Below, piece by piece: positions 2 to 28,137 of a stretch of DNA of 28,393 nt (position 1 is its first letter; every line of letters starts with the position of its first letter). Source of the DNA: Candidatus Odinarchaeota archaeon (GTDB taxonomy: Archaea; Asgardarchaeota; Baldrarchaeia; Baldrarchaeales; DXJG01); assembly GCA_021158895.1 (NCBI GenBank), contig JAGGSW010000046.1, positions 1 through 28,393 on the forward strand. The letters are read 5' to 3'. The notes under the pieces are model-generated. The model made no database searches and was not told where the DNA came from. It saw nothing but the letters and a program-made list of their open reading frames with translations. A program made the position numbers and the translations under genes.

Positions 2-1141
2 ATCATCGTAGGACATCAAAAAGAACAAATAACCAAATATTTCGGAGATGGAAGCAAACTAAACCTAAAAATAACCTACAAAGAACAAAAGGAACCCCTA
101 GGAACAGCCCACGCCACCAGCATAGCCGAAGACTTCGTAGACAACGAAAACTTTCTACTGATCTACGGAGACGTTCTAACAAGCAAACAAAACTACCCTA
201 AAATAATAGAATTCTTCAACAAAGAATCCCCCTCAACCCTCATCACCACATACAAGGTAAAAGACGCATCACTCTACGGCATCATAAAAACAAAAAACAA
301 CCAAGTCACAGAAATCATAGAAAAACCAGACCCAACAGAAGCAAAAAACCAGCAAATAAACGCGGGAATATACATATTCACACCCAAAATCTTCAAAGCA
401 ATAAAACAAACCAAAAAATCAAAAAGAGGAGAATATGAACTAACAGACTCCATACAGCAACTAATCAAACAAGACGAAAACATATTAGCATATGAACTAG
501 AAGACTGGTGGATAGACATAGGCACCCCATGGGATCTACTCGACGCAAACAAACTACTACTAGAAGAAACAAAACTAGAAATAAAAGGAAAAATAGAAGA
601 AGGAGCAAAAATCATAGGACCAGTAGGAATAGGAGAAAACACCATAATCAGATCAGGAAGCTACATAATAGGCCCAACCCTAATAGGAAAAAACTGCGAT
701 ATCGGACCAAACTGCTTCATAAGACCCCACACATACATAGGAAACCACTGCAGAATAGGAAACGCCTGCGAAATAAAAAACAGCATAATACTTGACCACA
801 CCCACATAGCCCACCTATCCTACGTAGGAGACAGCATAATAGGACAAAACGTAAACTTCGGAGCCGGAACCATAACAGCAAACCTCAGACTAGACGAAAA
901 AACAATAAAAATGACAATAAAAGGAAAAAGAATAGACACCGGAAGAAGAAAACTCGGAGCAATCATCGGAGACAACGTAAAAACAGGAATCGGATGCATG
1001 CTAATGCCAGGAATAAAAATAGGCCAAAACTCCCTAATAGGACCAAACACAACCATAAACAAAGACATCCCACCAAACACCATCACAACAACAAAACCCC
1101 AAAACACAACAAAACCACTACAACCCCAACCAAAAAAATAA
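2..1141 (+). CDS. Sugar-1-phosphate nucleotidylyltransferase fused to a left-handed beta-helix acetyltransferase domain (archaeal GlmU/ST0452-like); 5' end outside the window
   Basis: The frame is open from the window edge to TAA at 1139..1141. It has no in-window ATG start, so the ORF track shows only its tail (911..1141). Translation contains KEPLGTAHA, EKPDPTEAKNQQINAGIYIF and WWIDIGTPWDLLDAN (nucleotidyltransferase fold). Hexapeptide repeats follow: IGENTIIRSGSYIIGPTLIGKNCDIGPNCFIRPHTYIGNHCRIGNACEIKNSII. The C-terminal tail TITTTKPQNTTKPLQPQPKK is low-complexity and runs into the A/C tract. Confidence 0.85.
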   Translation: MIVGHQKEQITKYFGDGSKLNLKITYKEQKEPLGTAHATSIAEDFVDNENFLLIYGDVLTSKQNYPKIIEFFNKESPSTLITTYKVKDASLYGIIKTKNNQVTEIIEKPDPTEAKNQQINAGIYIFTPKIFKAIKQTKKSKRGEYELTDSIQQLIKQDENILAYELEDWWIDIGTPWDLLDANKLLLEETKLEIKGKIEEGAKIIGPVGIGENTIIRSGSYIIGPTLIGKNCDIGPNCFIRPHTYIGNHCRIGNACEIKNSIILDHTHIAHLSYVGDSIIGQNVNFGAGTITANLRLDEKTIKMTIKGKRIDTGRRKLGAIIGDNVKTGIGCMLMPGIKIGQNSLIGPNTTINKDIPPNTITTTKPQNTTKPLQPQPKK

Positions 1142-1283
1142 AAACCCAAAAACAAAACAACCCATAGAACACAACCACACACAACCCTTAAAAACCAAAA
1201 CACCACAAACAAAAACAACCAACCAACAAACAAACACAAAAACAAACCCGCCAAAAACAACAAAACAACAAAACAAACAACGC
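1142..1283. repeat. A+C-only low-complexity spacer, (CAAAA/ACAAA)n-like, between the CDS stop and tRNA-Gly
   Basis: Hand count gives only 3 T and 3 G in 142 nt. No T-rich TATA-like element lies within about 90 nt of the tRNA 5' end. Confidence 0.9.
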
Positions 1284-1392
1284 GCGCCCGTAGTCTAGAA
1301 ATCTGGGGATTTAAACTTCCCCGGTTGGAGAACCTGGACTAGGACGTCGGCCTGCCACGCCGAGGACCCGGGTTCAAATCCCGGCGGGCGCA
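1284..1392 (+). tRNA. tRNA-Gly(GCC) with a ~34-nt insertion (putative non-canonical intron) in the D-loop, about 1299..1332; CCA not encoded
   Basis: Acceptor GCGCCCG (1284..1290) pairs with CGGGCGC (1385..1391), discriminator A at 1392. D-stem GTCT/GGAC. Anticodon stem TCGGC/GCCGA with loop CTGCCAC (anticodon GCC at 1354..1356). T-arm CCGGG-TTCAAAT-CCCGG. Removing 1299..1332 gives a D-loop identical to that of the uninterrupted tRNA-Gly(UCC) at 5561..5638 (AGCCTGGACTA). Confidence 0.85.
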
Positions 1393-1399
1393 TCATTGA

Positions 1400-1414
1400 T
1401 TTTCTTTTTCTTTT
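1400..1414 (+). terminator. Oligo-T tract downstream of tRNA-Gly (archaeal-type terminator candidate)
   Basis: ttttctttttctttt begins 8 nt after the tRNA discriminator base. Confidence 0.4.
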
Positions 1415-1648
1415 GATGTTTATGGGGGCGTGATCTGGGTTTCTGAACGGGAAGATGTGTGTTGTATTTTGCTAGTTTTGGAAATTTTGGGACTTTGTTT
1501 TACTGTGTTTTCTTTGGTAAATTTGTGTTTTTGTTTTTGAATTTTCTATTAAAAGGAAGGGGTCTTTTGATGGTTGTGGGTAATGAGAATATGTTATTTT
1601 GGATGGCTTTGGCGTTTTCTTGGCGAATCTTTGGGGTGTTTAGTTTTT

Positions 1649-2989
1649 TTATTGGTTTTGTGTTGTGTTTTTAATTATTTCTGGTTTTTCGATTTCTTTT
1701 AGGGTTTGTGCGGCTCTTTTGCGTACTTCCTCGCTTGGGTGTTTTAGTTTGTCTTTCAGTTTTGATATTAGGTCCTTGGTTGCCTTTGGGTCTTTCTTTA
1801 TAATTGTTTGTTTTATGAGGCGGGTTAAGTTTTCGAGGTAGTGTTCTTCGAATGTGCTGGTTTCTGTGATTACTCTGAGTGTTATTTCTTTTAGTTTGGG
1901 TATTATTTTTTCAATTGTTTTTGGCTGTTTTTCTATGAGGTCGTCGAGAACATTGTACGTTACTTCACGAGCATCGGGATCTTCATCAATTAGTAGTTCC
2001 ACTAATTTCGGTATGATGTCTTCAATTAGTTGAGGATATTTCATGCCAATGTTTCCTAAGGCTGCGGCGGCACGTTCACGAATAAGCTCATATGGATCAT
2101 TTAATGCTTTCTTAAGCTTCGGTATTAGTTCAAAAATAAGTTCTGGATGTTCGTATGCAATGGCGCGTAAAGCGGCTACTTTACATTCGTCTAAATCTTT
2201 TCCTAGTTTTTTTATTTTTTCTTTAACTAGTTTTGGATATTTTTTCCAAATGACGTGAAGGAGGTCTGCTATTGTTTCAGGGATATCTTCACTTGTGCTA
2301 AACCATTCTAATCTTTCTATTAAGTCGTCTATTTTGTCTTTGAAGACATCTATGTACTTCTCTGCAACCTTCCACAAAGCTACAAGCGCGCTATAGCAGA
2401 TGTCTTCATAGCCATATATGTGTTCCATTAATCTTGGTATTGCGTCTTTGATTAGTTCTGGATATTTTTCTCCAATATTCCCAAGGATATATGCTGCATT
2501 GATACGAACTTCGTCATTTGAATCGTGTAACAACTTTATTAGCTTCGGTATTTTATCCTTAAACAATTCTGGAAAATTCTTTGAAACGTTTTCAAGAATT
2601 TGTGACATCCAGTAACGGGCGTGTTGACATCTATTAGGAAAATAAACCTCGTCATGACTGTTACGGTCGTATATCCTATAAGGTTCCTTACATGGTCTAT
2701 TTAACTTCTTCATTAACTCTACTATCTTATCTTTAAATAGCTCTGGGAATTTTGATGAGATGCTTTCAAGAGTCCGTGCGATATAATAGCGAACTTTGCC
2801 GCTTTGGTCATCTAATTTTTCCATTAGCTTTGGTACAACCTTTTTCAGCAGGCTTAAATCCATATACTTCAAAAGGTCATATTTTATATCTTCAAGGTTG
2901 CTGGCTGCTTTTTCACGAACCTCAACACTACAATCACTCAAATCCCTCAATATTCCCTCCAATTTTCCCTCAATCTCATCTCTCCCCAT
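1649..2989 (-). CDS. HEAT-repeat protein (PBS-lyase/HEAT-like repeats), paralog of 22217..23698
   Basis: 446-aa ORF. It has recurrent D-x-x-x-x-VR-x-x-AA-x-x-LG-x-IG units (DSNDEVRINAAYILGNIG, DPYELIRERAAAALGNIG, HPSEEVRKRAAQTLKEI). These alternate with seven (K/N)(Y/F)PELxKDKIPKL-type units. It aligns end to end with the 493-aa ORF at 22217..23698. Confidence 0.85.
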   Translation of the reverse strand: MGRDEIEGKLEGILRDLSDCSVEVREKAASNLEDIKYDLLKYMDLSLLKKVVPKLMEKLDDQSGKVRYYIARTLESISSKFPELFKDKIVELMKKLNRPCKEPYRIYDRNSHDEVYFPNRCQHARYWMSQILENVSKNFPELFKDKIPKLIKLLHDSNDEVRINAAYILGNIGEKYPELIKDAIPRLMEHIYGYEDICYSALVALWKVAEKYIDVFKDKIDDLIERLEWFSTSEDIPETIADLLHVIWKKYPKLVKEKIKKLGKDLDECKVAALRAIAYEHPELIFELIPKLKKALNDPYELIRERAAAALGNIGMKYPQLIEDIIPKLVELLIDEDPDAREVTYNVLDDLIEKQPKTIEKIIPKLKEITLRVITETSTFEEHYLENLTRLIKQTIIKKDPKATKDLISKLKDKLKHPSEEVRKRAAQTLKEIEKPEIIKNTTQNQ

Positions 2990-3286
2990 TCTTCTCCACC
3001 AATGCTAGTTTATCATTTGTTATAGCATTCGCACCACAGGGGGTTTCATCACCATTCTTGCTAAAATACATTACCAGACCTCTATTTCCAAAAACTTAAA
3101 CCATCGCGTTCAGATAGATCGCACAATTCCCTCAAATATTCATGCATTGTTTCGGAATGCTCTTCTACAAGACAATTTTCTCAACTAACCTTCATCGAAA
3201 TCCTTGTTTAATGTTCTATTATTAGAAATCTCGATCTTGTCCCTTAACAGAATTATTTTTAAGGGTAATTTCCCTAAATTTCAATC

Positions 3287-4396
3287 CTAATATATTCCCG
3301 ATCCATATATCAAACTTGAAAGCCTTGATTTCTCTATTTCATATTCTCTACACCACTCAAGAATCTTCTTTCTCCACTCACGATACTTCTCCAGCCTCAT
3401 ATAATTCATATAAATCGCTTTTGAATCGAAACCATTTGATTCGACAATTACATGTCCCATACATCCTCTTACAGCCCATCTAGCCCTTCTAAAAGCCTCA
3501 ATGTTCTTTGGATCATTGTAAGGCTTTTCTTCATCAAAATCTGGAGCTATAACTTTGTCAAACCTTTTTTGTAGTGCACGCACGTTTTTGTCTGAGAAAG
3601 CGTCCAATGTATGAGGAGAAGCATATTCTCGATCATACACCTCTTCGCATCTCCAGATATCTATGCTCCATATACTAGGATCGTTTTTGAGTTCTGAAAT
3701 CAAGTTTACAGCTTCCTCAATCGCATCGACACTAAAAGAACACATCAAAACTCTTCCATTAACAATTTCACATATCAATTTTCTTGCAAGCTTATCTACG
3801 ATAGCTATCTGATCCGGAAAGTCAGTTAATGGGCATCTAAACTTTAACTCAATGTTCTTACCAGAATCCTGAATCCACCTAATTTTCTTTCCTTCTGAAT
3901 CTTCGAAAACAAATTTACTTGCAAGTCTTCCCTTCTTTACTATGTAAAAGCTCCAACCCTCAAATCTAATCAAAACTGCAACAACAAAGAGATTCTCTCT
4001 AACTTTAAACACGTCACATTTTTCATAGATGAACTCTACAACCTTTCGACGATTTTCCTTCCACATTTCTTCCAACTTTCTTATCAGATTTTCGGAAACA
4101 ACTTCACTTCCTGTCACAAAGTCTAAAATAGTGTAGTGATTTCCTAGAATTATAGGATTTACTTGATCTTCTAGGACTGTACGGTTTTCTCCGATGATTA
4201 ACTCGTCTTCAAGCGAGTATACCCTCAAATCGTCTATTATTCTCTCTATATTGAAATCGTATTTGAATAAACTTTCAATTTTTTCAGATGAATAAACTCC
4301 AGGTACTCTTCTAAGAACTTCCAAGGCTATTTCACTTAGCTTTGGATCCGGTTTAAGGTCTTTATACAAAAATTTGAAACTAGCCATTCCAACCAC
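3287..4396 (-). CDS. Hypothetical protein, 369 aa, no recognisable motif
   Basis: Long clean ORF of globular-looking composition. Its ATG (4396..4394) directly abuts the stop of the upstream ORF (4397..4399), suggesting co-translation. I found no P-loop, metal-binding or nuclease signature. Confidence 0.75.
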   Translation of the reverse strand: MVGMASFKFLYKDLKPDPKLSEIALEVLRRVPGVYSSEKIESLFKYDFNIERIIDDLRVYSLEDELIIGENRTVLEDQVNPIILGNHYTILDFVTGSEVVSENLIRKLEEMWKENRRKVVEFIYEKCDVFKVRENLFVVAVLIRFEGWSFYIVKKGRLASKFVFEDSEGKKIRWIQDSGKNIELKFRCPLTDFPDQIAIVDKLARKLICEIVNGRVLMCSFSVDAIEEAVNLISELKNDPSIWSIDIWRCEEVYDREYASPHTLDAFSDKNVRALQKRFDKVIAPDFDEEKPYNDPKNIEAFRRARWAVRGCMGHVIVESNGFDSKAIYMNYMRLEKYREWRKKILEWCREYEIEKSRLSSLIYGSGIY

Positions 4397-4843
4397 CTAT
4401 AGCATAGTTGACATCAATATATTTATTGTCAGATCCATTAACACACTGTTTACTGCCGGCATTATTGCCTTCTCTAATATTGTTCCTATTACCGTATCTG
4501 CTATTAACTCTGCTGGCCCGCCCAAAACAAAACCTACTAAGAGATCAAATATTTTCTGATTTATAAGAGGAATTTCAAAGCTTAATATCTTCTGTAACAC
4601 TGCCCCAGCTTCACGATTCACCTTTACTTTAATCCACTCGCATAACTTGTCACATAACTCATCAGTCGTATAGAATGGTATACCCAAGCTTTTTAGAACC
4701 GTTGCAAATCCTCCAATAATCATTCCTACTGCAAAGGATGAATCAGGAGTTATCGCATCCTTAATTCTACCTCCAACGCTTTTACCCCGTTCAATAATTT
4801 CCTCTTTTAAAGCCCTCACAAAGGGCTTCTTAGGATCTACCAT
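4397..4843 (-). CDS. Hydrophobic 148-aa ORF; downstream reading frame of the frameshifted gene 4397..5109
   Basis: ORF as called in the track. The same frame stays open upstream without an ATG to 5023. That upstream part encodes sequence homologous to residues ~30-80 of the 1455-aa protein. The C-terminus GGPAELIADTVIGTILEKAIMPAVN resembles the C-terminus of the 1455-aa protein. Confidence 0.7.
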   Translation of the reverse strand: MVDPKKPFVRALKEEIIERGKSVGGRIKDAITPDSSFAVGMIIGGFATVLKSLGIPFYTTDELCDKLCEWIKVKVNREAGAVLQKILSFEIPLINQKIFDLLVGFVLGGPAELIADTVIGTILEKAIMPAVNSVLMDLTINILMSTML

Positions 4844-5109
4844 CAGACTTATCCAATCTCCTTCAATATCTAGGGTACCACTGAGCGGAGATATTGTTAC
4901 CTTGCTAATAATTTGTTCTTCCCAAACTGTTACAGGTGTACTGTTCCTAAACTCTTTAAAATGTGGATCTAAACCGTTAGTCGATATCCTCGGTACACGT
5001 ATCTTTGAAAGTTTTTCTAAACTTTATTTTCACCCATAGTCATTAATCTAACTGTTGAAAGCTCCATTAAAACGATCATTAAAATTAATATTAATGATTT
5101 TACCTTCAT
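4397..5109 (-). pseudogene. Frameshift-interrupted 237-codon mini-paralog of the 1455-aa membrane protein (signal/anchor leader, conserved N-module, short C-terminal hydrophobic region)
   Basis: ATG at 5109..5107 opens MKVKSLILILMIVLMELSTVRLMTMGENKV and stops at TAG 5019..5017. Shifting -1 after AAA (5025..5023) continues as SLEKLSKIRVPRISTNGLDPHFKEFRNSTPVTVWEEQIISKVTISPLSGTLDIEGDWISL and runs into the 148-aa ORF. This is collinear with the giant protein N-terminus MKVKLQLAIVVLLILLMEFSTAGLMATGEGKILDELASYETPEIYIDSFNPNFQGFKNGTPVNILEEEIISRVTVSPLS. After the leader, 30 of 62 positions are identical without gaps (hand alignment). Confidence 0.7.
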
Positions 5110-5155
5110 TTTGCCCCCACATCCTCACTACGTTCCACATTAACATGTTGGGCAG

Positions 5156-5169
5156 CAAAGTTTATATAC
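5156..5169 (-). promoter_or_regulatory. TATA-like promoter element of the mini-paralog gene
   Basis: The minus-strand element GTATATAAACTTTG lies about 47-60 nt upstream of the ATG at 5109. It matches GTATTTAAACTTTG upstream of the 1455-aa gene at 13 of 14 positions. A purine-rich SD-like GAGGATGTGGGGG lies between the box and the ATG. Confidence 0.5.
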
Positions 5170-5560
5170 GCTTAAGACAAGCCGATCAAAAACCTGTGGA
5201 AACATTTTACTTAAAAAGAAATTTTCGACTAAAAAATAACAAGTCAAAAACTAGCAAAACTATGGCTAATATTCATCGATACCTGCTTCTATGTCATTTC
5301 TAAATGTTGCTCTACGTAAAGGTAAAGGACAAAATTTAGGTATAACGCTGTTAATCTGATACTTTTATTGCGCATTTATATATCAACATTATTTTTGTCG
5401 GCAACATGTAGTCTAAGTGAACTTGAAACATAATTGATTGAAAAGGTTCTGCATCTCTATTCAAAATACCTTGTTTCGGCTCCATTTAACTTATCAGAAA
5501 ATTCTCTTAACTCAAAAGCTCTAAAACACAATTGAACGTGAAAACAAAGGTGAAATTTGG

Positions 5561-5638
5561 TGGTGCGGGGCCCGGGATTTGAACCCGGGTTATCGGCTTG
5601 GAAGGCCGACGTCCTAGTCCAGGCTAGACTAGCCCCGC
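5561..5638 (-). tRNA. tRNA-Gly(UCC), uninterrupted, CCA encoded
   Basis: The reverse complement reads GCGGGGC-TA-GTCT-AGCCTGGACTA-GGAC-G-TCGGC-CTTCCAA-GCCGA-TAAC-CCGGG-TTCAAAT-CCCGG-GCCCCGC-A-CCA. All four stems pair and the anticodon is TCC. Confidence 0.95.
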
Positions 5639-5980
5639 TTATTATTATTGTTTTGTGTATGGTTTTTTAGAATTTATTATGATTTTAGTTTTTTACTGTT
5701 TTTGTTTGTTGTTTAGGCTTTTTGTGGTATTTAGAGTGTTCTAGCGGCTATATTTTTATTGTGGGTTTGATTTAAAAAGTTTACGGGGATGCGATTTTAG
5801 ACAATAAAGTGGAGTTTTAAGTTGTATCGTATTTTTGGAAGTTGAATGTCTTCTTGTATGGTGTATGTATGAGGTATGGGATATTTTTCTTTATTTTGCT
5901 AGTTTATTTAATTTTTATTTTTAGTTGACTGGTTGCAGCGTGTTTGGTTTTGGTGTTGTTAGCGGTTTTTAGTCCGAAGG

Positions 5981-5989
5981 TTTATAAAA
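5981..5989 (+). promoter_or_regulatory. TATA-like box upstream of the glycosyltransferase gene
   Basis: tttataaaa lies about 35-40 nt upstream of the GTG start at 6023, followed by G-rich SD-like sequence. Confidence 0.35.
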
Positions 5990-6022
5990 TTTTGAGGTGA
6001 AATATTTGTATGGGGGGATTGT

Positions 6023-7105
6023 GTGGTGAAGGTGGCTTTAATTTCTAGTTGGGGCGCATGTTGTGGGGTGTCTATTCACGCTGAACTTATTGGAAGGGCT
6101 TTGTTGAGGCAGGGACATGAATTGATTGTTTTTGCTCCGCGGTGCTATGAAGATCGTAGGACTTATTTTTTCTTTTCGAGGGATGAGGAGTTTGTGGTGA
6201 GGAATTTTTCTTTTCTAAGGTATGGTGATCGATATAGTGATGAGGAGCTTCTTAATTCTTTCTACTTGGATCCTACGCCTATTCTTGAATCGGATTACGA
6301 TGTGTTGATGGTTGAGAAGCCAACTTCTATACCTCTTGGTAAATTGCTTGAGATTTTCCCGAAGATTAAGAGAAAGGCGAAAACTGTTGCGATTTTACAT
6401 GAAGGGATTTTACCTGTGAATCCTTATTTTTCTAAGTTTGACTGGGATGCTATTGCTGTTTTTGATGAAAGATTTAAGAAACTGTTTTCTAAGGTCTTTC
6501 CAGCGGAGAAAATTCACATTGTTCCTTTTCCCTGTCATCCGATAAAAAAAGGAGATAAAGTGAGCCTGAGGAAGGAAATTGGACTACCTGAAGATGGTAA
6601 AATCATTTTTACTTTTGGGAGGTTTTATGGAATAGAGGAAATTTTGCATATGCTTAGAAGTTTAAAAGAAGGTTACCCATCTCTTATATATTTGTGTTTA
6701 GTTAGGAATGTTGAAAGATTTATGTTGCTAAAAGAGCTTAGGCAGATGTATCCATTTATACAGGTGAGGTTGGGAAGGCCGTCTATTGAGGAATTATATA
6801 AGTATTTGGGGGCAATTGATGCTATATTATTAAACAGGGGGCATCCTAAGCATATAGCTGTGTCTAGTACTGCTCATCTATGTATGGGGTCTCTTAATCC
6901 TATTTTATGCTCGGATGTCGGCTATTTTTACACATTTGACAAAGAAGTAATAAAGTATAGGAATTTAATGGAGCTTGAAGCAAGAATAATGGATGTTTTT
7001 GAGGGAAGAGTAAGTGAAACGTTAAAGAGAGCAGAAGAATTTGTTAAACGGCATTCAGCGGATAAAATAGCAGAAGAACTACTAAAAATAGGTTTAGAAG
7101 CTTGA
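6023..7105 (+). CDS. Glycosyltransferase-like protein (GT-B fold, GT4-like)
   Basis: 360-aa ORF. The N-terminus KVALISSWGACCGVSIHAELIGRALLRQGHELIVFAP is typical of GT-B N-domains. GLPEDGKIIFTFGRF resembles the start of the GT4 C-domain. The family assignment is motif-level only. Confidence 0.6.
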   Translation: MVKVALISSWGACCGVSIHAELIGRALLRQGHELIVFAPRCYEDRRTYFFFSRDEEFVVRNFSFLRYGDRYSDEELLNSFYLDPTPILESDYDVLMVEKPTSIPLGKLLEIFPKIKRKAKTVAILHEGILPVNPYFSKFDWDAIAVFDERFKKLFSKVFPAEKIHIVPFPCHPIKKGDKVSLRKEIGLPEDGKIIFTFGRFYGIEEILHMLRSLKEGYPSLIYLCLVRNVERFMLLKELRQMYPFIQVRLGRPSIEELYKYLGAIDAILLNRGHPKHIAVSSTAHLCMGSLNPILCSDVGYFYTFDKEVIKYRNLMELEARIMDVFEGRVSETLKRAEEFVKRHSADKIAEELLKIGLEA

Positions 7106-7251
7106 AATCAAAAGAGCCATATGGATGAAAAGCAATGTAAGGAGATATGATTTATCATTCAATGTATCATGTGTTGACTTATTACCGGAGACACCAAGAT
7201 TAAAAATGTAAACAGAATAGTTTGTTTCCAATCTCCATCAAGCTATGTAAT

Positions 7252-8559
7252 TTATTGTAAGTCACATTTCATCCATGTTGTTCTTGTTTGTTCGGGTTCG
7301 CCAAAGGGGTTTCCAGTGTTGAGGATGTTTGTGAGAACTTTTTGGTGTGGTGGTGCTGTATAACCTGCCTTTTGTAGTCTACTTCTTAGCTTTGTTACCA
7401 TTTTCGGTATGTTAAGTTCTAAGGGACAGGCTTGGGCGCATTTTGCGCAGAGAGTGCATGTGTATGCTGGTCCTGCGGTCTTTTCCATTCCGTGTGTGAA
7501 TGCTGTATAGATGGTTCCGATTGCTCCGATGTATTTGTAGCCGTATGTCCCTCCTATTCTTTGATATACGGGGCAGACATTGAGGCAGCTGCCACATCGG
7601 ATGCATTGAAGCGTTTCTTTGAAGTCTGGGTCTTTTAGCATGTTTGTTCTTCCGTTGTCTAATAATATTAGGTGTAGTTCTTTTGGTCCGTGAACTCCTA
7701 TGGTTGTGGTGAATTCTATGTCTGCTGTTCTACTTGGACCCGTTATTAGCGATATATAACTTGTCATTGTTTGCCCTGTAGCGTAGATGGGAAGAATTCG
7801 CGTGATAATGAAGGCATCTTCGATGGTAGGGTTTATTTTTTCTATTCCCGCTATACATATGTGAACTGGAGGCGCGTTTGTTACAAATCTTCCGTTTCCC
7901 TCATTTGTCACTAGTAATATTGTTCCGGTGTCTGCTGCAATGGCATTTGCACCAGATATACCGATATCTGCTTTTATGAACTTCTCTCTTAAAAGTTTCC
8001 GGGCTGCCAATGTTATTTCGGTTATTTCTTGGGATATTTTTTCTCCTGTAAGTTTGGAGAACAGTTTTGAGATTTTTTCTCTTGGGATGTGGATGGCGGG
8101 TGCTACGAAGTGAGAGGGTTTTTCTTCGAGTTGTTGAATTATAAATTCACCTAGGTCTGTTTCTATAACTTCTATGTTGTGTTTTTCTAGATATTCGTTT
8201 AGGGAGATTTCCTCTGTGGTCATTGATTTCGATTTTACAACTAGCTTTGCTTCATGTTCTTCACAAATTTCTAAAACTTTTTTATTAGCTTCCTCTGCTG
8301 TCTTCGCTAAGTAAAAGGTCCCTCCAACAGCTTCTATGCTCTCTTTTACTTCTTTGATAAACGTTTCAAGCTGGTCAATTGCATTTTGCCTAATTTCTCT
8401 AACTCTCTTAAGAAGTTCTTCTACGTTTTTTATTTGTTTTAGAGCGTTGTCCTTGTTCTCGGTGATTTTTTGAGCTGCTTTCTTTATTGTTTTTGTGATT
8501 TCTTCTTTGGAGAGAGTTTCTATTATTGTGTTTTTGTAGATTTCATACCAGTCTTTCAT
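7252..8559 (-). CDS. lutB: LutB/YkgF-like iron-sulfur protein (LUD domain plus two 4Fe-4S ferredoxin motifs)
   Basis: CIRCGSCLNVCPVY and CTLCAKCAQACP motifs follow a LUD/DUF162-like N-terminal region. I prefer the start at M37 of the track ORF (ATG 8559..8557), because it forms an ATGA overlap with the upstream gene's stop (TGA 8558..8556). The longer 8667 start would overlap that gene by 112 nt. Confidence 0.8.
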   Translation of the reverse strand: MKDWYEIYKNTIIETLSKEEITKTIKKAAQKITENKDNALKQIKNVEELLKRVREIRQNAIDQLETFIKEVKESIEAVGGTFYLAKTAEEANKKVLEICEEHEAKLVVKSKSMTTEEISLNEYLEKHNIEVIETDLGEFIIQQLEEKPSHFVAPAIHIPREKISKLFSKLTGEKISQEITEITLAARKLLREKFIKADIGISGANAIAADTGTILLVTNEGNGRFVTNAPPVHICIAGIEKINPTIEDAFIITRILPIYATGQTMTSYISLITGPSRTADIEFTTTIGVHGPKELHLILLDNGRTNMLKDPDFKETLQCIRCGSCLNVCPVYQRIGGTYGYKYIGAIGTIYTAFTHGMEKTAGPAYTCTLCAKCAQACPLELNIPKMVTKLRSRLQKAGYTAPPHQKVLTNILNTGNPFGEPEQTRTTWMKCDLQ

Positions 8560-22040: not shown

Positions 22041-22168
<128 letters not shown>

Positions 22169-22216: not shown

Positions 22217-23698
22217 TTATTTTTGTTTTTGTGTGTTGTTGATTTTTTCAAGTATTAGTTTGATTTTTCTGTGGGTTTCGTTGTCGGTTTTGTTGAGTTT
22301 GTTGAGGAGTGGGGTTATTTTGTTGAGTGTTTCTGGTTTTGTGGTGGTGATTGTTTTTAGGAGGTTGGCTATTTTTGTGATGTGGTGTTTGCTGTATTTT
22401 TTGTTGGTGAGGAGTTTTGGTAGTATTTGAAGGAGTTTTGGTAGTATTTTGCTGATGGTTTGGGGGTGTTTTTTGATGAGGATTGTTAGGTTGTCGCTTA
22501 GGTTTTCGTAGACTTCTTCGTATGGGTGGGTGAGGTATTCTGTTATTTTGGGTAGTGTGTCTTCGATTAGCTGTGGGTAGTCTATTCCTATGTATAGTAG
22601 TGTTAGTGCGGCTGATGTGCTGAGTTCTTGGTAGGTTTCGTTATAGGTTTCGTTGTATAAGTTTTCTTTGAGTTTTGGGGTTAGTTTTAGAACCATCTTG
22701 GAGGATTTGAGGGCGAGCCACTCGATGGTTTCAATGGTGTATTCGTTTAGTTTGTCCCAAATTTTTTCTATTTTTTCTTCTACCTGTTTCGGATATTTTT
22801 TCCAAACTACGTGTATTATGTCTATAAGTAGTTCAGCGGTGTCCCAGTCAGTGAGGGAGTCCATTAAGGCTTCAAATAGCAAGTCTATTTCTTCTTTCAG
22901 TATATCAACGTTATTTTCTGCATGGTTCCATAGGATAGATGCTGCTTTATAACGAATGGGATCATGTCTTAGACAAGTCACCAAGTCTCGGGTTATGTTT
23001 TTAATTGTTTCAGGCTTTCTACTTCCGATGTTTTCGATTATTTCTAATGCTATGAGGATAACTTCGTCATTTGAGTCATGTAGAAGTTTTGCTAAGTCGG
23101 ATATCCTGTTATCGAATAATTCTGGGTATTTTTTTGAGACTTCTAATATTGCCTCAGCTATTGCTGTACGAGCATGTTGACATCTATTTGGGAAGCCTGC
23201 AAACTCGTCGTGTGGTAAATCATCTAGGTTGTAAGGGTCTTTGCAGGGTCTACTGAGTTTTAGAAAAAGTATGTCGACTTTATCTTTGAATACTTCTGGC
23301 CGTTTAGCCGCTAAACTTGAAACAACTGTTGCTAAATGTTCGTAAACTCTATCATTTCTCTCCTCCAGTCTCCCAAGAAGTCTTCTAACAGCGAACTCAA
23401 ATTTCTTCTGACCCATATTGGAGATTTCGTCCACGATCTGTTGGAGAGTTTCTGCAATATGTTCCCTAATCTTATCACTTGGATCGTTCAACTTGTCAAT
23501 GAATCTCAGTATAGCCCACTCAAGCCTTTCGCCTTTCAAACACTTAATTTTTTCGGCGAATTCTTTTACTCGATCTTTGATTACAATTTCGCGATAATCA
23601 ATACTAGAGTCGTTAAGTTCCCGAATAATGTCCTTAATAATATTAAAGGTAGGTTCTTCTCTGGATTTGTTCTTTGAGTTTCCTTGGTTCAACACCAT
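22217..23698 (-). CDS. HEAT-repeat protein, paralog of 1649..2989
   Basis: 493-aa ORF. It shares blocks with the 446-aa paralog: RPCKDPY...HDE...FPNRCQHAR, KKYPELF, LAKLLHDSNDEV, WKKYPKQVEEKIEKI, IGIDYPQLIEDTLPKI, LIKKHPQTISKILPKL. It carries one extra repeat relative to the paralog. Confidence 0.85.
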   Translation of the reverse strand: MVLNQGNSKNKSREEPTFNIIKDIIRELNDSSIDYREIVIKDRVKEFAEKIKCLKGERLEWAILRFIDKLNDPSDKIREHIAETLQQIVDEISNMGQKKFEFAVRRLLGRLEERNDRVYEHLATVVSSLAAKRPEVFKDKVDILFLKLSRPCKDPYNLDDLPHDEFAGFPNRCQHARTAIAEAILEVSKKYPELFDNRISDLAKLLHDSNDEVILIALEIIENIGSRKPETIKNITRDLVTCLRHDPIRYKAASILWNHAENNVDILKEEIDLLFEALMDSLTDWDTAELLIDIIHVVWKKYPKQVEEKIEKIWDKLNEYTIETIEWLALKSSKMVLKLTPKLKENLYNETYNETYQELSTSAALTLLYIGIDYPQLIEDTLPKITEYLTHPYEEVYENLSDNLTILIKKHPQTISKILPKLLQILPKLLTNKKYSKHHITKIANLLKTITTTKPETLNKITPLLNKLNKTDNETHRKIKLILEKINNTQKQK

Positions 23699-23769: not shown

Positions 23770-26700
23770 CTACCAGTTTACTGCTTGTTGTAGGAGTTGT
23801 GTCCATGTGTTTCCTAGGATGGTTCCGATTAGGTACATTGTTGGTCCGCCGTTTCCGATGATTTGTATTGCTGTGTCGATGAGGGGGTATATGATTTTTG
23901 TGAAGATCCAAGCATTATCGCCGAATACGGTTTGTGCTATGTAGGGTATTATGTTGTCTGCCAAAACTACGTTTATGTTTCCTTCTAGGTACATGCCTAT
24001 TAGTATGCCGTTTAACATGCAGCCGAGAAATGTTTGTACTGCAGTTTTAACAACATTTTTAATCGAGTTTTCGCCTTTAGTTCGCTTGATGACGTTCCAT
24101 GTGTCTTGCCAGTCATCTACATCTATGAGGATTTTTGCTATGAGTGATAGTGCCATGTATGCATAGATTTTTCCGTAGTTTGTTTTTAGAACCATTTTTA
24201 CGTTATTTGGTAGTCTTTTGTATATCTTTATGCCTATTATGTGGCCAGTGAAGCACGTGGTTGCAAATATTATGATGAATATAGCCGATGCGGCTGCGTT
24301 TAAGCTTTTTCCTAGGATGTTCTTGAAGGTTTCTTTTACTTTGGGTTTTTGGAAGATGTCTAGTAGGTCTTTGTGGTGTTGTATTACTCCTTTTTCAGGG
24401 GCTTTTGTTGGTAGTTCGATTGTGGTTGTTTTAACGTCTTCTCCAAGTTCCCCTAAGTCCTTGAGGTATGCTTCGTTTCTTGCTTGGATTCTTAGTTCCT
24501 TTTGTGAATTTCTGTAATTGTCGAGTAACCTGAAATTCCAATTCCCAGACTCTTTATAAATCCCCCTAATCTTCTCAGTAAGAACTCTTATTTCGATTTT
24601 CTTACCATCTTGAATCTTTGTATATTTTGGATCAATGGCATTCCTAATTTTATCGGCCGACATGTTTTTCTTTAGTTTGCCTTTTGTTTTTGCTTCGTTT
24701 ACGGCTTGTTTTAGGGTTTCTATGACTTTTGTGTGGAGTTTTTCGTAGTATTCTTTGTAGTTTTGTTTTAGCCAGTTTTCTATGTTTTCTCTTGTTTGTT
24801 TAACTTGTTTCTTTTGGTTTGTTAGGCCTTCTTCTTCTAGTCTTTCTTCCACTTTTTTAAGTATGTAGCATAGTTCTGTGTGTTGCATGAGGATTTCGTT
24901 GAGGAATACTGGGTCGTAGCCTTTTATGATGATTTCTGCGTGGTTGTCTATGACTAGAGGGTGAACTTCAGCAACAGACTGAGATATTAGGTTATAGAAG
25001 CTTGGTAGTTTTCCTTCCCGTGCTTTATACTTATTTGCATAGGTTCTCCAGAACTCAGCTTGCTTATTTATTATCTGTTTTACCTTTTTGGTTTTTTCCA
25101 GCCAGTTCTTGCCGAGCATGCCATCATCTAACCCTGTACCGTGATCAAACCTGTAGATGAACTCCATAATCCCCTTGCTTCGAAGTTTCTCCACAAGTTT
25201 TGAAGTTTTTGTGGCTTTATTTTCAGTTTTTGGTTTAGAAGCAATCTTTCCATAGTTTTCCTTGAGCTCTCTACACGGTTTGAATCTTCCTTCGCTCTTT
25301 TGTATTTCCATTCTTATCCCTAGGACTATTCTGTAACCCTTAAGTGTAATATCTTCGGTTTTGATTTCGCATGGTATGAACTTACTCATTAGTGCTATTG
25401 GTTTTCCCTTATCACTATAGAGTACTCCGTTTTGGATTTTTGTGTCGAATTTTTCCATCGCTTTTTTAAGTGTTCTTTCATAAGGATCTGTGAACTGGTT
25501 TAGGTAGCCGTGCCAGACAATTGAGAACTCTACTGATTCTCCATTAATATTCATGTGAATTGTTTGGATGATTGCTATATCTCCGTACCAACTATGGTAA
25601 CGACGACGTTTTTTGCCTTTTGTAGTTTTGCCGTACTCAAGAATGATCCTTTTGATTTTCCCGCTTTCTTTATCGTATTCTACGAGTTGTGTACCTTCTT
25701 TGATTATTTCGCTTAGTTTTTCGTTTAGGACTATTCTTTCGACTCTTCCGATTATGTCACATGGTCGGTTGGCGTCTCGCCACATTTCGGTTGCTTGGCC
25801 TTGTCTGAATATTATGTATATGTCGTCGAATCTTGTGAAGCTAACGTATTTTACCGATTTTCCCAGGTAATTCTCCATTTCCCTGTAGATTTTACGATGA
25901 TGCCATGATATGTTGGTGCTTTTTTCGTTGTCTCTTCTTGCAAACACACCAGCCATTAGTCCTGTGTATAGCCATGTCATGTATAGTTTGTAGTAGGAGG
26001 ATAGTTGTACTTCTGGTGGTTGGATGCTGATTAGGAAGTTTATTATTTTTGCTGCAGTGTTCATTATGTTGTCTGCGAGTTTTTTATTTAGTCCTCCTTC
26101 GACTACGAGTGTGGCGATCATTTCTGCTAATTGTAGGTATGCGTCTATTGTGAAATCCATGAAGTTTGTAAGCAACTTGGTAAGTAATGGTTTAACCGCA
26201 TTTTTCCATAAAGTATTGAATACGGATGTAATTGAATTAATGAATTTCTCAACGGAATTCTTAAGTAATCGTTCGCTATAAGCTACTGCGTTGTCTAGGA
26301 ATTTTATTGACCGATCTACCCATTTTCTTAGGATTTTTCGAACCCAGTTTAAATCTATGCTTAAAACTTTTGATAATGCTCCTAGAAGTTTATCCATAGT
26401 CCAGGAAAAGTATTTTAATATTCCATTTGCGAATTTTGCTATTGCAGCGATTATCAGGGCGGCAACAAGTTCACTCAGAGTTTTTCCAGCTCTAATCATA
26501 GAATAAGCTACGGAGACTACCGTCTTCAAGTATTGTTTTGCAAAGTTTACTATGAAGTTTGCCCCGCGGAAAACCGTATTATCTAAAATGGATTTTACCG
26601 GTTTACGCATCCACTTACTCCAAGGAGCATTAAATGTTGCATCAATCCACCTGTATACCGCGTTTTTAACACCGTAGTAGTTTTTGTAAATTGCATTGAA

Positions 26701-28137
26701 AATTTCGTCCACAAGCAAAATTGCATTTCTAACCTCATCAACACTGGCAACAAGTTTTCCAGCATAACCGCTTCCAAAACGTTTCCTTTCGGCTTTTGGC
26801 GGCCTCCAAAACCTCCCAACAATAAAAGGTATGCTTCTAGCTTTATGTCTGAAATTTATTTTCGGGGTTTTAGCCGATTTGCTGAATACTTTACATTTTG
26901 GCGGCGTGTAATAACTTATATGTTTAAACCTTTTTCTTACGTAGCTTCTCGGAGGTTTTCCTCGGTGAATTATTGCTTTAACATGTTTTCTATGAAGGGT
27001 GATTCTATAAGTTTGCCTAGAGGTTGTTCTTCGCCCCAGTTTGAAGCCCAAAGTTATATTATTGTTGTTGTCGTAGATTTCGTAGGGGTTAACTGTCGAG
27101 TTTGTTTCCTCAATTTCATCTACGACTCTAAATTCTACGTAGCCCTCCACTACTTCGCTGGTAAAATTGTCGACAATTTGAACAGGGAGATACACATGTT
27201 CTTCAGCTAGTTCATAGGTTCCGGAAGATAGAACTGACTGCACCGAAGCAATGTATTCTCCGTTCAAATATGTTTCTCCATCATAAGTTAATATTGCTGC
27301 GACGCTAAGCTCTTCGAAAAAGGAAACCACGGAGCTGTTACCGTAGATCTCTTTTTCCCTGCCCATGTTGCAAAACGGTAAATAAACGAACTTCAACTTA
27401 CTTAAGCTACTTACACCTAGTTCCTTTACTAAATATTTCAAAGTTTCACCGTTTACAACAGCTACATTGTTTTCTCCATGCATTAACATTCCATGAACCT
27501 GCAAAGTTTCATTTAAGACACCGTGAGTTAAAATTATTAGATAGGTTTCGCTTATCCTTCGGTCTTGCTCAGCTAGCCGCAGCAAATACATCAGGTTTAT
27601 CGCTGTACAATAGTTTCCCGCCATGATTATGGCCGCATCTCCAACCTCCTCTGCGAACTTCAAAATTTCATCTACAACTATGCGTGTTCTTTCATCGCTA
27701 AACAACGTTTCATTTAAAATAGCGATATCTGTCACCAAGAAAGCTAGGACAAGTATACCTGTACGATTAATATTTGCCACGGATTCTTCATAAATTTTTT
27801 CAATGCCCATGCTTAAATATCCCGTTGCGTTTTTCCCTGTGAGCCAGCTTTCCTGGACGTTTGAGTTCAATGTGATGCCTTGACCAATATTCGGTATGTT
27901 ACTGAGTGGGGACACTGTTACTCTGCTAATTATTTCCTCTTCCAAAATGTTTACGGGCGTTCCATTCTTGAATCCTTGGAAATTTGGGTTGAAGCTGTCA
28001 ATGTAGATTTCAGGGGTTTCGTAGCTTGCAAGTTCATCTAATATTTTTCCTTCACCTGTTGCCATGAGTCCTGCTGTTGAAAACTCCATTAAGAGAATCA
28101 ATAAGACAACTATCGCCAATTGAAGCTTGACTTTCAT
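23770..28137 (-). CDS. Very large (1455 aa) secreted/membrane-anchored protein of unknown function
   Basis: Uninterrupted 4.4-kb ORF, with GGAGGG 8 nt upstream of the ATG. It starts with an N-terminal hydrophobic leader, MKVKLQLAIVVLLILLMEFSTAGLMA. A ~330-aa N-terminal domain follows, rich in N-x-S/T sequons. Residues ~366-456 form a ~90-aa Arg/Lys-rich tract. Next are long amphipathic-helix regions and a charged coiled-coil-like region. The C-terminus holds a cluster of hydrophobic helices (AIFIIIFATTCFTGHIIGI, IYAYMALSLIAKILI, FLGCMLNGILIGMYL, PTMYLIGTILG). Confidence 0.85.
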   Translation of the reverse strand: MKVKLQLAIVVLLILLMEFSTAGLMATGEGKILDELASYETPEIYIDSFNPNFQGFKNGTPVNILEEEIISRVTVSPLSNIPNIGQGITLNSNVQESWLTGKNATGYLSMGIEKIYEESVANINRTGILVLAFLVTDIAILNETLFSDERTRIVVDEILKFAEEVGDAAIIMAGNYCTAINLMYLLRLAEQDRRISETYLIILTHGVLNETLQVHGMLMHGENNVAVVNGETLKYLVKELGVSSLSKLKFVYLPFCNMGREKEIYGNSSVVSFFEELSVAAILTYDGETYLNGEYIASVQSVLSSGTYELAEEHVYLPVQIVDNFTSEVVEGYVEFRVVDEIEETNSTVNPYEIYDNNNNITLGFKLGRRTTSRQTYRITLHRKHVKAIIHRGKPPRSYVRKRFKHISYYTPPKCKVFSKSAKTPKINFRHKARSIPFIVGRFWRPPKAERKRFGSGYAGKLVASVDEVRNAILLVDEIFNAIYKNYYGVKNAVYRWIDATFNAPWSKWMRKPVKSILDNTVFRGANFIVNFAKQYLKTVVSVAYSMIRAGKTLSELVAALIIAAIAKFANGILKYFSWTMDKLLGALSKVLSIDLNWVRKILRKWVDRSIKFLDNAVAYSERLLKNSVEKFINSITSVFNTLWKNAVKPLLTKLLTNFMDFTIDAYLQLAEMIATLVVEGGLNKKLADNIMNTAAKIINFLISIQPPEVQLSSYYKLYMTWLYTGLMAGVFARRDNEKSTNISWHHRKIYREMENYLGKSVKYVSFTRFDDIYIIFRQGQATEMWRDANRPCDIIGRVERIVLNEKLSEIIKEGTQLVEYDKESGKIKRIILEYGKTTKGKKRRRYHSWYGDIAIIQTIHMNINGESVEFSIVWHGYLNQFTDPYERTLKKAMEKFDTKIQNGVLYSDKGKPIALMSKFIPCEIKTEDITLKGYRIVLGIRMEIQKSEGRFKPCRELKENYGKIASKPKTENKATKTSKLVEKLRSKGIMEFIYRFDHGTGLDDGMLGKNWLEKTKKVKQIINKQAEFWRTYANKYKAREGKLPSFYNLISQSVAEVHPLVIDNHAEIIIKGYDPVFLNEILMQHTELCYILKKVEERLEEEGLTNQKKQVKQTRENIENWLKQNYKEYYEKLHTKVIETLKQAVNEAKTKGKLKKNMSADKIRNAIDPKYTKIQDGKKIEIRVLTEKIRGIYKESGNWNFRLLDNYRNSQKELRIQARNEAYLKDLGELGEDVKTTTIELPTKAPEKGVIQHHKDLLDIFQKPKVKETFKNILGKSLNAAASAIFIIIFATTCFTGHIIGIKIYKRLPNNVKMVLKTNYGKIYAYMALSLIAKILIDVDDWQDTWNVIKRTKGENSIKNVVKTAVQTFLGCMLNGILIGMYLEGNINVVLADNIIPYIAQTVFGDNAWIFTKIIYPLIDTAIQIIGNGGPTMYLIGTILGNTWTQLLQQAVNW

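Follow-up and report, generated by a model that had tools for sequence, protein, structure and literature searches.

A probable pseudogene left by a second giant gene in a Baldrarchaeota genome after an internal deletion and the loss of one nucleotide

Prokaryotic pseudogenes, with their homopolymer indels and microhomology-mediated deletions, are the closest described counterpart of a short locus on the minus strand of the window (the whole stretch of 28,393 nt that was analyzed), at positions 4397–5109. Common to both are a short homopolymer in which the loss of 1 nt is disabling, a sizeable stretch deleted from within the gene with microhomology at the junction (6 nt here), intact orthologs elsewhere, elevated and mostly nonsynonymous substitutions (on small counts here), and intact neighboring genes. 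What distinguishes this remnant from the usual case is that its parent family is uncharacterized and has so far been seen only in Baldrarchaeota-type Asgard archaea, and that two independent deletions (one in the window, one in locus L002) have start points no more than about 6 nt apart, on an inverted-repeat arm. An interrupted frame can also be decoded, as in fucA1 of Sulfolobus (Saccharolobus) solfataricus, the established archaeal example, where programmed −1 frameshifting occurs at the heptamer A-AAA-AAT (PMC1616953). Like the remnant, fucA1 consists of overlapping 0 and −1 ORFs, the product of which is homologous to single-ORF relatives; however, it has a slippery heptamer and a flanking stem-loop, neither of which is present at the remnant's site. 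Bacterial phase-variable surface-protein genes resemble the parent family in coding for large exported or membrane proteins, in their frequent frame-breaking homopolymer indels, and in their mosaic, fast-diverging sequence. Clan CD caspase-fold proteases (orthocaspases, CHAT-domain proteins) may be related to it, judging by a weak fold match of the AlphaFold model and by the order of His and Cys, the dyad by which caspase-fold proteases are defined (PMC6426788), but the giant proteins have an unusual architecture, with a leader at the N-terminus, a membrane module at the C-terminus and ∼1,000 residues more, and the remnant is devoid of the probable caspase-fold domain altogether. The features of the remnant, and the intact giant with which it was compared, are as follows.

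5161..5168, minus strand: TATA-like box TATATAAA, ∼52–59 nt upstream of ATG 5109, read from the sequence
5017..5109, minus strand: leader ORF in frame 0, 30 codons (MKVKSLILILMIVLMELSTVRLMTMGENKV) from ATG 5109, then TAG 5019-5017, by translation
5019..5021, minus strand: frameshift site, TTT in the window and TTTT in five orthologs, that is, a 1-nt deletion, by alignment with L002 and a regular-expression census of loci
4870..5023, minus strand: remainder of the N-module in the −1 frame, SLEKLSKIRVPRISTNGLDPHFKEFRNSTPVTVWEEQIISKVTISPLSGTLD
4864..4896, no strand assigned: perfect 8-bp inverted repeat, arms 4864-4871 and 4889-4896 with 17 nt between them
4864..4869, minus strand: deletion junction, 6-nt microhomology ATATTG, present both in the parent of the N-module (CTAGATATTGGCGAAGG in L005) and in that of the C-module (ATAAATATTGAAGGAGATT in L001)
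4397..4863, minus strand: remnant of the C-module, with the final ∼155 codons of the C-terminal membrane module of a type-2 giant and the stop, including the 148-aa ORF at 4397-4843
23770..28137, minus strand: intact 1455-aa giant of type 1 (comparison paralog) with leader, N-module, probable caspase-fold domain, basic linker, long helical region and C-terminal hydrophobic module

The reading frames were as the original prediction had described them. The ORF listing contains only the 148-aa ORF (4397..4843, minus strand) and an antisense ORF (5055..5303, plus strand), and translation from ATG 5109 ends at TAG 5019..5017. The −1 frame, closed immediately upstream by a TAA at 5026-5024, is open for 208 codons from 5023, through the 148-aa ORF to the stop at 4399-4397. 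Adding one T in silico to the run at 5021-5019 yields the 237-aa ORF that had been foreseen in the absence of the shift. Read-through of the TAG was ruled out because frame 0 meets its next stop 16 codons further on. Within the 30-codon ORF lies the hydrophobic leader of the giant family (hydropathy peak at residues 6–24), and in seven of the ten sister contigs shown it is annotated as a gene of its own. The remnant thus has the hydrophobic leader and the conserved N-module (∼80 aa) by which members of the family are recognized, whereas the probable caspase-fold domain with its invariant His and Cys and the long central region, present in all full-length giants, were not found in it. Also missing is the complete four-segment C-terminal membrane module typical of type-2 giants, only the last two of its four hydrophobic segments having been kept according to the hydropathy profile. 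The anatomy initially proposed (a giant's leader and N-module, a frame break, a hydrophobic C-terminal part and no center) was therefore correct. Its kinship to the 1455-aa protein was confirmed for the N-module, as residues 15–89 of the repaired ORF align with residues 17–90 of the giant across the shift point (47% identity, E = 9e-18), a similarity well outside chance, but not for the C-terminal part, which matches the end of the giant poorly (27% over 70 aa, E = 0.07) and comes from a different subtype (P0012, L020). The N-module is 82–91% identical to P0004, P0005 and P0007; identity of the C-module is 65–68% to P0002 and P0003, and 37% to the C-terminus of the intact P0012. The short protein matched no known family in Pfam, NCBIfam or PADLOC.

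At the junction (4864-4869), similarity to L001 begins and similarity to L003, L005, L007 and L008 stops. Downstream of it, L001 and the window are 98.6% identical; upstream, L001 continues not into an N-module but into an earlier hydrophobic segment of the C-module (...AKIGLGIALTAIFIVGINIEGD), and the leader and N-module of the remnant run on into the full giant body in L003, L005, L007, L008 and L021. Codons 1–80 (leader and N-module) thus continue directly into the final ∼155 codons of a second giant subtype. Compared with P0012 (L020), an intact giant of 1518 aa in which a C-module of this kind makes up the C-terminal part from residue 1368, ∼1,265 codons (∼3.8 kb, ∼85% of the coding sequence) are missing in frame. 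They comprise the probable caspase-fold domain, the basic linker and the long helical region, and of the C-module the first two of its four hydrophobic segments. When 1.84 billion representatives were searched with a C-module profile, the 15 hits with a length of about 300 aa or more all had the module at their extreme C-terminus, the other 10 hits being short pieces (42–222 aa); sequences were read for seven of the hits, and in none was an N-module combined with a C-module. By these sequence comparisons, the short form is a deletion product of a second full-length giant and not a natural small gene, and the notion of a "mini-paralog" missed by ORF calling has to be abandoned. The junction lies on the 3′ arm of the 8-bp inverted repeat, where the deletion in L002 also begins (GAT 4870-4868). 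The two deletions are independent, with start points no more than about 6 nt apart, and the inverted repeat may have had a role in causing them.

The second lesion is the loss of one T at codon 30/31. Where the window reads ATAAAG-TTTAGAAAAAC, L002 reads GTAAAGTTTTGGAAGAG, and the run census revealed four T in L002, L003, L005, L007 and L008 (five of five orthologs) and three in the window and in L010–L019. The five orthologs are ∼90–95% identical to the window at the DNA level across the frameshift region, with KVLEELSK in frame, and encode the same leader and N-module as the remnant in a single unbroken frame. The comparison with orthologous loci, one of the checks named at the outset, thus showed an intact frame across the shift site in all five. 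L001 was of no use at this site because its contig begins 95 nt upstream of the 148-aa ORF. The exact 148-aa ORF was found on 12 contigs, 10 of which were read; these represent eight other assemblies (JGI 3300017593 and 3300016457; ENA ERZ23499535, ERZ23499504 and ERZ23499514; Logan SRR21462135, SRR14000036 and SRR14000031). Along stretches of up to 4.2 kb, all 10 match the window at 99.5–99.98% identity, and all 10 contain TTT and the same architecture, without an indel at the frameshift site or the deletion junction. They differ from the window by 1–15 scattered mismatches, which means that they are not copies of a single assembly. Both lesions are real, and intact orthologs exist. The loss of one T from TTTT terminates translation from ATG 5109 after 30 codons, and the recurrence of the same damage in ten independent contigs points to an ordinary pseudogene rather than to a sequencing error or a recoding signal.

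Substitution patterns are in keeping with this notion. Between the window and L001, the C-module contains 12 differences in 471 nt, eight of them nonsynonymous (pN/pS 0.57, from small counts), and the adjacent partner gene three in 1107 nt; the fragment has about nine times the substitution density of its neighbor, with two thirds of the changes nonsynonymous. For the N-module, pN/pS was 0.6–0.96 in the window lineage versus 0–0.36 among the other orthologs, and G21R (in the hydrophobic leader), S28N and E33K are unique to the window lineage. With 3–24 substitutions per comparison, these values hint at relaxed constraint on the remnant.

The genes surrounding the remnant, together with the HEAT-repeat gene that accompanies the intact giant, are the following.

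5561..5638, minus strand: tRNA-Gly(UCC), at the upstream edge of the remnant locus
3287..4396, minus strand: intact partner ORF of 369 aa (366 aa from ATG), conserved partner of type-2 giants, no known family
1649..2989, minus strand: HEAT-repeat protein of 446 aa, with Pfam HEAT/HEAT_2 matches
22217..23698, minus strand: HEAT-repeat protein of 493 aa, downstream of the intact 1455-aa giant

Homologs of the 369-aa protein follow a type-2 giant in L004 (37% identity, E = 6e-72) and L020 (27%, E = 1e-35), and searches of Pfam, NCBIfam and PADLOC gave no match. That its gene is the split-off center of a giant was ruled out (best E = 0.64 in BLASTP against the giant); it is a separate, conserved type-2 partner. 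An exact look-up of the 369-aa product, which starts with GTG, found none because gene callers take the ATG (366 aa). The 446-aa HEAT-repeat protein is a paralog of the one at 22217-23698 (38% identity, E = 2e-81), and the latter gene forms, together with that for the 1455-aa giant, a second copy of the cassette in the window. The TATA-like box, kept with one change in L002, is presumed to be the archaeal promoter of the remnant and the genes downstream. Upstream of tRNA-Gly(UCC) the neighborhood differs between genomes, and the adjoining insertions are unlike in L002, L005 and L007. Integration of an element between tRNA-Gly repeats was considered and dismissed, as the second copy (1321-1392) is an inverted, tRNA-Gly(GCC)-like sequence and no direct att repeat; no integrase was present among the Pfam-scanned ORFs of the locus. 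A distant blastn search against a plasmid collection matched only the tRNA region, with a haloarchaeal plasmid, and is irrelevant.

At the same locus, other Baldrarchaeota genomes contain full-length giant genes. L021 has a 1449-aa giant (P0007) and a HEAT gene, and shares both flanks with the L002 locus (upstream LUD-domain and GT4-like genes, which are present in the window too; downstream genes for NTP_transferase, a DUF4269 protein, S3Ae and a DHH protein). In L020, the 1518-aa giant and a 420-aa partner homolog are followed by S3Ae, DHH, S15, Ham1 and RIO kinase, as in L002. The idea that every copy at the remnant's locus is broken was consequently rejected, P0007 (L021) and P0012 (L020) being intact. 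L003 diverges after codon 293 and contains no frameshift, and L007 is of insufficient length for a verdict.

The Baldrarchaeota giants (P0006–P0013, 1447–1537 aa) seem, from the sequences compared, to constitute an uncharacterized family so far found only in Baldrarchaeota-type Asgard archaea. The type-2 subtype is intact in P0012 and L020, and its C-module bears only a faint resemblance to the C-terminus of the 1455-aa protein. Searches of Pfam, NCBIfam, PADLOC and PDB sequences with the latter gave no usable match, nor did any curated sequence model in Pfam or NCBIfam (Peptidase_C14, CHAT and the like) match the giant. In its AF2 model, which is mostly of low confidence (average pLDDT 56), a core at residues 100–285 reached pLDDT 70–96. 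The best 50 hits in a Foldseek search of the model against PDB were all caspases or CHAT proteins, among them caspase-9, -7 and -2 and a SAVED-CHAT protein, with probabilities of 0.44–1.0 (mostly above 0.9) but weak E values (2e-3 to 2e-2) and TM scores of 0.2–0.5. H205 (LTHG) and C256 (PFCNMG) are invariant in seven of seven sequences, each after a predicted strand, and their succession, His then Cys, is that of caspases. Residues ∼100–285 are thus a probable caspase-fold domain, as far as the structural model can be relied on.

Taken together, window positions 4397–5109 are very probably a pseudogene, the fixed remnant of a second giant gene, which is one of the explanations put forward at the outset. 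In this Baldrarchaeota (Asgard) genome, a second full-length giant gene would once have been located between tRNA-Gly(UCC) and the conserved partner gene. A deletion of ∼3.8 kb (∼1,265 codons) joined codon 80 to the last ∼155 C-module codons inside ATATTG, the loss of one T from TTTT at codon 30/31 truncated translation to 30 codons, and both lesions are fixed in the near-clonal population of the window. Since the deletion is in frame and the 237-codon frame is open once the T is restored, the deletion product may have worked as a small protein until recently. At present, the remnant presumably makes no functional protein; its promoter and leader may persist because they still serve transcription of the intact 369-aa partner and HEAT-repeat genes, which the promoter probably still drives.

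It is improbable that a part of the remnant has stayed in use, be it the 148-aa C-module fragment translated from ATG 4843 as a small membrane protein or the 30-aa hydrophobic leader peptide, or both. A GGAG motif is present ∼15 nt upstream of ATG 4843, and neither the window clade nor L001 (P0001, 96% identity) has a break in the 148-codon ORF, despite different upstream lesions (frameshift and deletion in the former, a TGG>TAG nonsense mutation four codons before the ATG in the latter), which speaks against full decay and would allow for a residual small membrane protein. However, at 2.5% divergence no new stop is expected in 447 nt even without selection, the start Met, in place of which Ile occurs in P0002 and P0003, is not a conserved residue of the family, two of the four hydrophobic segments of the module are missing from the fragment, and the ninefold excess of substitutions per site over the partner gene, mostly nonsynonymous as described above, does not suggest that the sequence is maintained.

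Programmed −1 ribosomal frameshifting or transcriptional slippage, which would fuse both frames into a 237-aa protein, is very unlikely, the precedent of fucA1 in archaea (PMC1616953) notwithstanding. The shift needed is indeed −1, with a 0-frame stop directly downstream. Yet the only stretch in which it could take place (5026-5020, between the −1-frame TAA and the 0-frame TAG) reads T-AAA-GTT, which is no X-XXY-YYZ heptamer, as had been noted at the outset, and neither tRNA re-pairs after a −1 slip at AAA GTT (5025-5020). Folding of the 102 nt downstream is no more stable than that of shuffled sequences (−14.9 versus a mean of −15.7 kcal/mol, z = 0.27), and a run of three T is too short for polymerase slippage. 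Moreover, the five orthologs are in frame, and, unlike that of fucA1, the shift is limited to one near-clonal (≥99.5%) clade, in a gene from which ∼85% of the coding sequence is missing as well. The original prediction had ranked programmed frameshifting lowest of its three explanations, and its low standing was justified by the lack of a heptamer and of downstream structure and by the orthologous frames.

Just as unlikely is phase-variable (contingency) switching, by which the T run would toggle the gene on and off in the population. Homopolymer indels do recur in the giant family (A7>A6 in L008, A5>A7 in L005, a frame change in an A run in L004), and the products resemble exported or membrane proteins. 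T3 and T4 are, however, far below the length of known hypermutable tracts, and, in contrast to bacterial contingency loci, the tracts of the giant family are short (3–7 nt) and their lesions lie at sites that differ between genomes, which is consistent with independent decay. All 11 clade sequences have T3 and none T4; the window allele is fixed, no on/off polymorphism was seen, and an "on" product would still miss nearly all of the protein.

That the true genome has TTTT and an intact 237-codon ORF has a negligible chance of being correct, for although 1-nt homopolymer changes are the commonest type of sequencing error and the whole frame opens once the T is restored, TTT occurs in the ten contigs from eight other assemblies, which were produced by differing pipelines (JGI, ENA/SPIRE-style scaffolds, Logan) and carry scattered mismatches of their own, and T runs of 3 or 4 nt are not error-prone in the short-read data on which most such assemblies are based; the indel error suspected originally is thereby refuted.

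For annotation, the pseudogene reading means that the two short ORFs at 4397–5109 are to be entered as one pseudogene and not as a recoding site or a new small gene. Even without read data, looking up the exact protein in independent assemblies can, as here, decide between a sequencing error and a real mutation. A wider and improbable reading takes the remnant as one instance of a general pattern of cassettes beside tRNA genes, in which a Baldrarchaeota giant (leader, caspase-fold, membrane-anchored) would be combined with a HEAT-repeat or other partner, with alternative subtypes at one locus and, in different lineages, repeated knockouts by homopolymer indels, nonsense mutations and deletions from the same inverted repeat. 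That this reflects an arms-race or contingency-type system is doubtful; if it did, the giant could, for example, be a surface or defense protease whose loss is periodically favored, and the stub of leader and promoter would maintain expression of the partner genes. With its probable caspase-fold domain, its paired HEAT-repeat genes and its unusually fast turnover, the giant family would appear to merit study more than the remnant itself.

The gene at window 4397-5109 (minus strand), which combines the leader, N-module and C-module of the giant family, is very probably a real, fixed pseudogene with two lesions, left over from a giant gene of type 2 (the subtype with a different second half). 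The features needed here are as follows.

Features of the two giant-gene loci in the window
5561-5638: tRNA-Gly(UCC), upstream of the remnant
5168-5161, minus strand: TATA-like box, putative promoter of the remnant
4397-5109, minus strand: remnant
3287-4396: intact 369-aa ORF (partner gene), following the remnant without a gap
1649-2989: HEAT-repeat gene (446 aa), downstream in the remnant's cassette
23770-28137, minus strand: intact giant gene (1455 aa)
22217-23698: HEAT-repeat gene, following the intact giant

As originally predicted, the ORF listing contained only a 148-aa ORF (4397..4843, minus strand) and an antisense ORF (5055..5303, plus strand) in this region. Translation of the minus strand from ATG 5109 gave MKVKSLILILMIVLMELSTVRLMTMGENKV up to a TAG at 5019-5017 and, again as described, the -1 frame was open from 5023. 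A TAA at 5026-5024 closes that frame just before, and it then runs for 208 codons until its stop at 4399-4397. Insertion of one T into the run at 5021-5019 yielded an ORF of 237 aa, the length proposed for the intact frame. Residues 15-89 of this repaired ORF aligned with residues 17-90 of the giant (47% identity, E = 9e-18), with the alignment spanning the break; the C-terminal part matched the giant's C-terminus weakly (27% over 70 aa, E = 0.07). When the repaired ORF served as protein query, it recovered P0004 and P0005, homologs with the same leader and N-module in a single frame (...GESKVLEELSK...). At the orthologous locus of L002, a 156-kb JGI contig 93% identical here, the sequence was GTAAAGTTTTGGAAGAG, compared with ATAAAG-TTTAGAAAAAC in the window. 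A census of all fetched loci, the comparison with orthologs that the original prediction had proposed, found TTTT and in-frame reading in L002, L003, L005, L007 and L008, and TTT in the window. On this alignment, the frameshift is a 1-nt deletion.

The short architecture had been labeled a mini-paralog; as judged from sequence, it is rather a deletion product of a second full-length giant, of a subtype that is intact, for example, in P0012 (1518 aa). Similarity of the window to the N-module loci L003, L005, L007 and L008 stopped at ∼4864, beyond which these loci run on into the body of a giant that shares 50-70% identity with the one in the window. L001 was 98.6% identical to the window between 4872 and 2764; upstream of the junction it encodes ...AKIGLGIALTAIFIVGINIEGD, a hydrophobic segment from earlier in the C-module. 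In P0012, the C-module makes up the C-terminal part, starting at residue 1368; the N-terminal half of this protein is giant-like, and its second half is of the different type named type 2. In L004, a type-2 giant body leads into the C-module across a frame break at an A-run, and the next gene is a 368-aa homolog of the partner gene (369 aa) in the window; in L020, intact P0012 precedes a 420-aa homolog. A C-module profile searched against 1.84 billion representative proteins gave 25 matches; in all 15 that were roughly 300 aa or longer (297-1562 aa), the module formed the extreme C-terminus, and the other 10 were short pieces (42-222 aa). None of the seven matches whose sequences were read joined leader and N-module to the C-module. 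The junction lies inside ATATTG (4869-4864), a motif that occurs in both parents, that of the N-module (CTAGATATTGGCGAAGG, L005) and that of the C-module (ATAAATATTGAAGGAGATT, L001), and about 1,265 codons (∼3.8 kb) are missing compared with P0012. An independent deletion in L002 (∼10250-10262), extending from the N-module as far as the HEAT gene's C-terminus, has its left breakpoint (GAT, window 4870-4868) within about 6 nt of that of the window's deletion, which runs from N-module to C-module. The N-module ends in a perfect inverted repeat of 8 bp (arms 4864-4871 and 4889-4896) whose 3′ arm holds both left breakpoints; the site may be a structure-prone hotspot for deletions.

The window's 148-aa ORF was found with identical sequence on 12 contigs, 10 of which were read (L010-L019; JGI samples 3300017593 and 3300016457; ENA assemblies ERZ23499535, ERZ23499504 and ERZ23499514; Logan assemblies SRR21462135, SRR14000036 and SRR14000031). 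All 10 were 99.5-99.98% identical to window 5700..1500 and differed from it at scattered SNPs, and are therefore not copies of one assembly. Because every one of them contained TTT and the identical junction, both lesions are fixed in a near-clonal, species-level population, in which a single site inside the remnant (4457) was polymorphic among clade contigs. Of the options originally considered, the decaying pseudogene is the one supported. The substitution pattern hints weakly at decay as well: between window and L001, the C-module showed 12 differences in 471 nt, 8 of them nonsynonymous (pN/pS 0.57, from small counts), compared with 3 in 1107 nt for the adjacent 369-aa gene; N-module pN/pS, likewise from small counts, was 0.6-0.96 for the window versus each ortholog and 0-0.36 among orthologs. 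Window-specific N-module changes were G21R (inside the hydrophobic leader), S28N and E33K. That a residual 148-aa membrane fragment is still made, or that the deletion product was functional until recently, is improbable in either case.

Programmed frameshifting, by which both frames would be decoded, is very unlikely, in line with the original ranking. The permitted -1 slip site, AAA GTT (5025-5020), lies between the -1-frame TAA and the frame-0 TAG; the sequence there, T-AAA-GTT, is no X-XXY-YYZ heptamer and differs from the A-AAA-AAT of archaeal fucA1 (PMC1616953). Moreover, the 102 nt downstream folded no better than shuffled sequence (z = 0.27), and the orthologs read in frame. Read-through of the TAG was rejected, since frame 0 runs into another stop after 16 more codons. 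A sequencing or assembly indel, another of the original options, was ruled out by TTT in all 10 contigs read, which come from eight other assemblies. In L008 (Ga0209410_1000008, ortholog of the remnant's locus; 11197-11210), A7>A6 leaves AG-A-AAA-AAT-TTA, which contains the slippery heptamer of S. solfataricus fucA1; a -1 shift on it would restore ...RKKFKR.... As a candidate for recoding, this heptamer outranks the site in the window; no structure was found downstream (z = 0.22), and a plain indel is more likely.

Since a HEAT gene follows both the remnant and the giant (the two HEAT proteins are 38% identical, E = 2e-81), the window holds two "giant + partner" cassettes, one intact and one gutted. 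The promoter at the TATA-like box would still serve the intact partner and HEAT genes, which would explain why the remnant persists. The HEAT/ARM-repeat paralogs match eukaryote-type families (Adaptin_N, Cnd1 and PDS5 for the 446-aa protein, Adaptin_N and Cnd1 for the 493-aa protein of 22217-23698), and the former weakly matches the PADLOC models OloA and HEAT-ARM_XIII. A 122-nt tRNA (22041-22162, plus strand; Rfam 49.8 bits), missed by ARAGORN and presumably intron-containing, lies directly downstream of the intact cassette's HEAT gene, which places a tRNA next to each cassette. At the opposite end of the remnant cassette, in inverted orientation, 1321-1392 (plus strand) resembles tRNA-Gly(GCC) (28.6 bits, just under the 29-bit Rfam threshold; missed by ARAGORN); over its 3′ two thirds it shares ∼90% identity with tRNA-Gly(UCC), its 5′ acceptor arm is unpaired, and it could represent a tRNA gene that has been damaged. 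NCBI labels a protein 100% identical to the window's giant as Candidatus Odinarchaeota archaeon; Baldrarchaeota or Baldrarchaeia is the label of other family members and of the closest species-representative genome, and although MAG labels are inconsistent, the source is an Asgard archaeon under either.

The remnant lacks all of a region that is highly conserved among seven aligned full-length members, with invariant H205 (LTHG) and C256 (PFCNMG), and retains two of four hydrophobic C-module segments. In the AlphaFold model of the giant (mean pLDDT 56), residues ∼100-285 form a confident alpha/beta core (pLDDT 70-96), whose top 50 Foldseek matches in PDB were exclusively caspases and a SAVED-CHAT protein, mostly with probability above 0.9 but modest E-values (2e-3 and up) and low TM-scores. 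Pfam, NCBIfam and PDB sequence searches with the giant returned nothing matching this domain, which, as modeled, is probably of caspase fold. Family members (1447-1537 aa) were seen in Baldrarchaeota-type MAGs only.

State of the giant gene in other genomes (breaks are given as they stand in the assemblies and may include assembly error)
L021 (P0007): intact, 1449 aa, with HEAT gene
L020 (P0012): intact, 1518 aa, with partner homolog
L008: 97.9% identical to L021 over 4350 nt; sole indel A7>A6 at codon 401
L005: A5>A7 at codon 95
L004: frame break at A-run
L001: nonsense mutation TGG>TAG
L002: N-module fused in frame to C-terminus of HEAT gene
L006: giant of the other cassette (locus B), broken in Yap30 MAG

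Alignments of the neighboring housekeeping genes were free of indels (over 5.4 kb in L005 and 10.2 kb in L008), and the damage therefore appears specific to the giant gene family, as far as assemblies can tell outside the window. The L006 gene (9953-13093, Yap30.bin4.67), ortholog of the window's intact giant, changes frame at residue 135/136, lacks residues ∼626-1035 and is 36% identical in its C-terminal part versus 87-90% in its N-terminal part; by these comparisons it is a fast-evolving mosaic. In L021, the GT4-like glycosyltransferase next to the intact giant's locus (4001-5084) was called as two genes (181 and 178 aa) versus one of ∼360 aa and may be frameshifted. What is inserted between tRNA-Gly and the GT4-like gene (6023-7105 in the window) varies by genome: a 1453-aa protein with a SACS-family Pfam match in L002 (4647-9008), three ORFs (379, 396 and 336 aa) in L005 (5372-9324), ORFs of 313, 885, 714 and 381 aa in L007 (∼600-9320), and none in the window and L008; in L013, the tRNA instead has an EF-2 gene upstream. 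From its gene content, this stretch is a variable island adjoining the tRNA. The remnant itself is ordinary; its parent family, and the rapid turnover thereof, is the more interesting lead.
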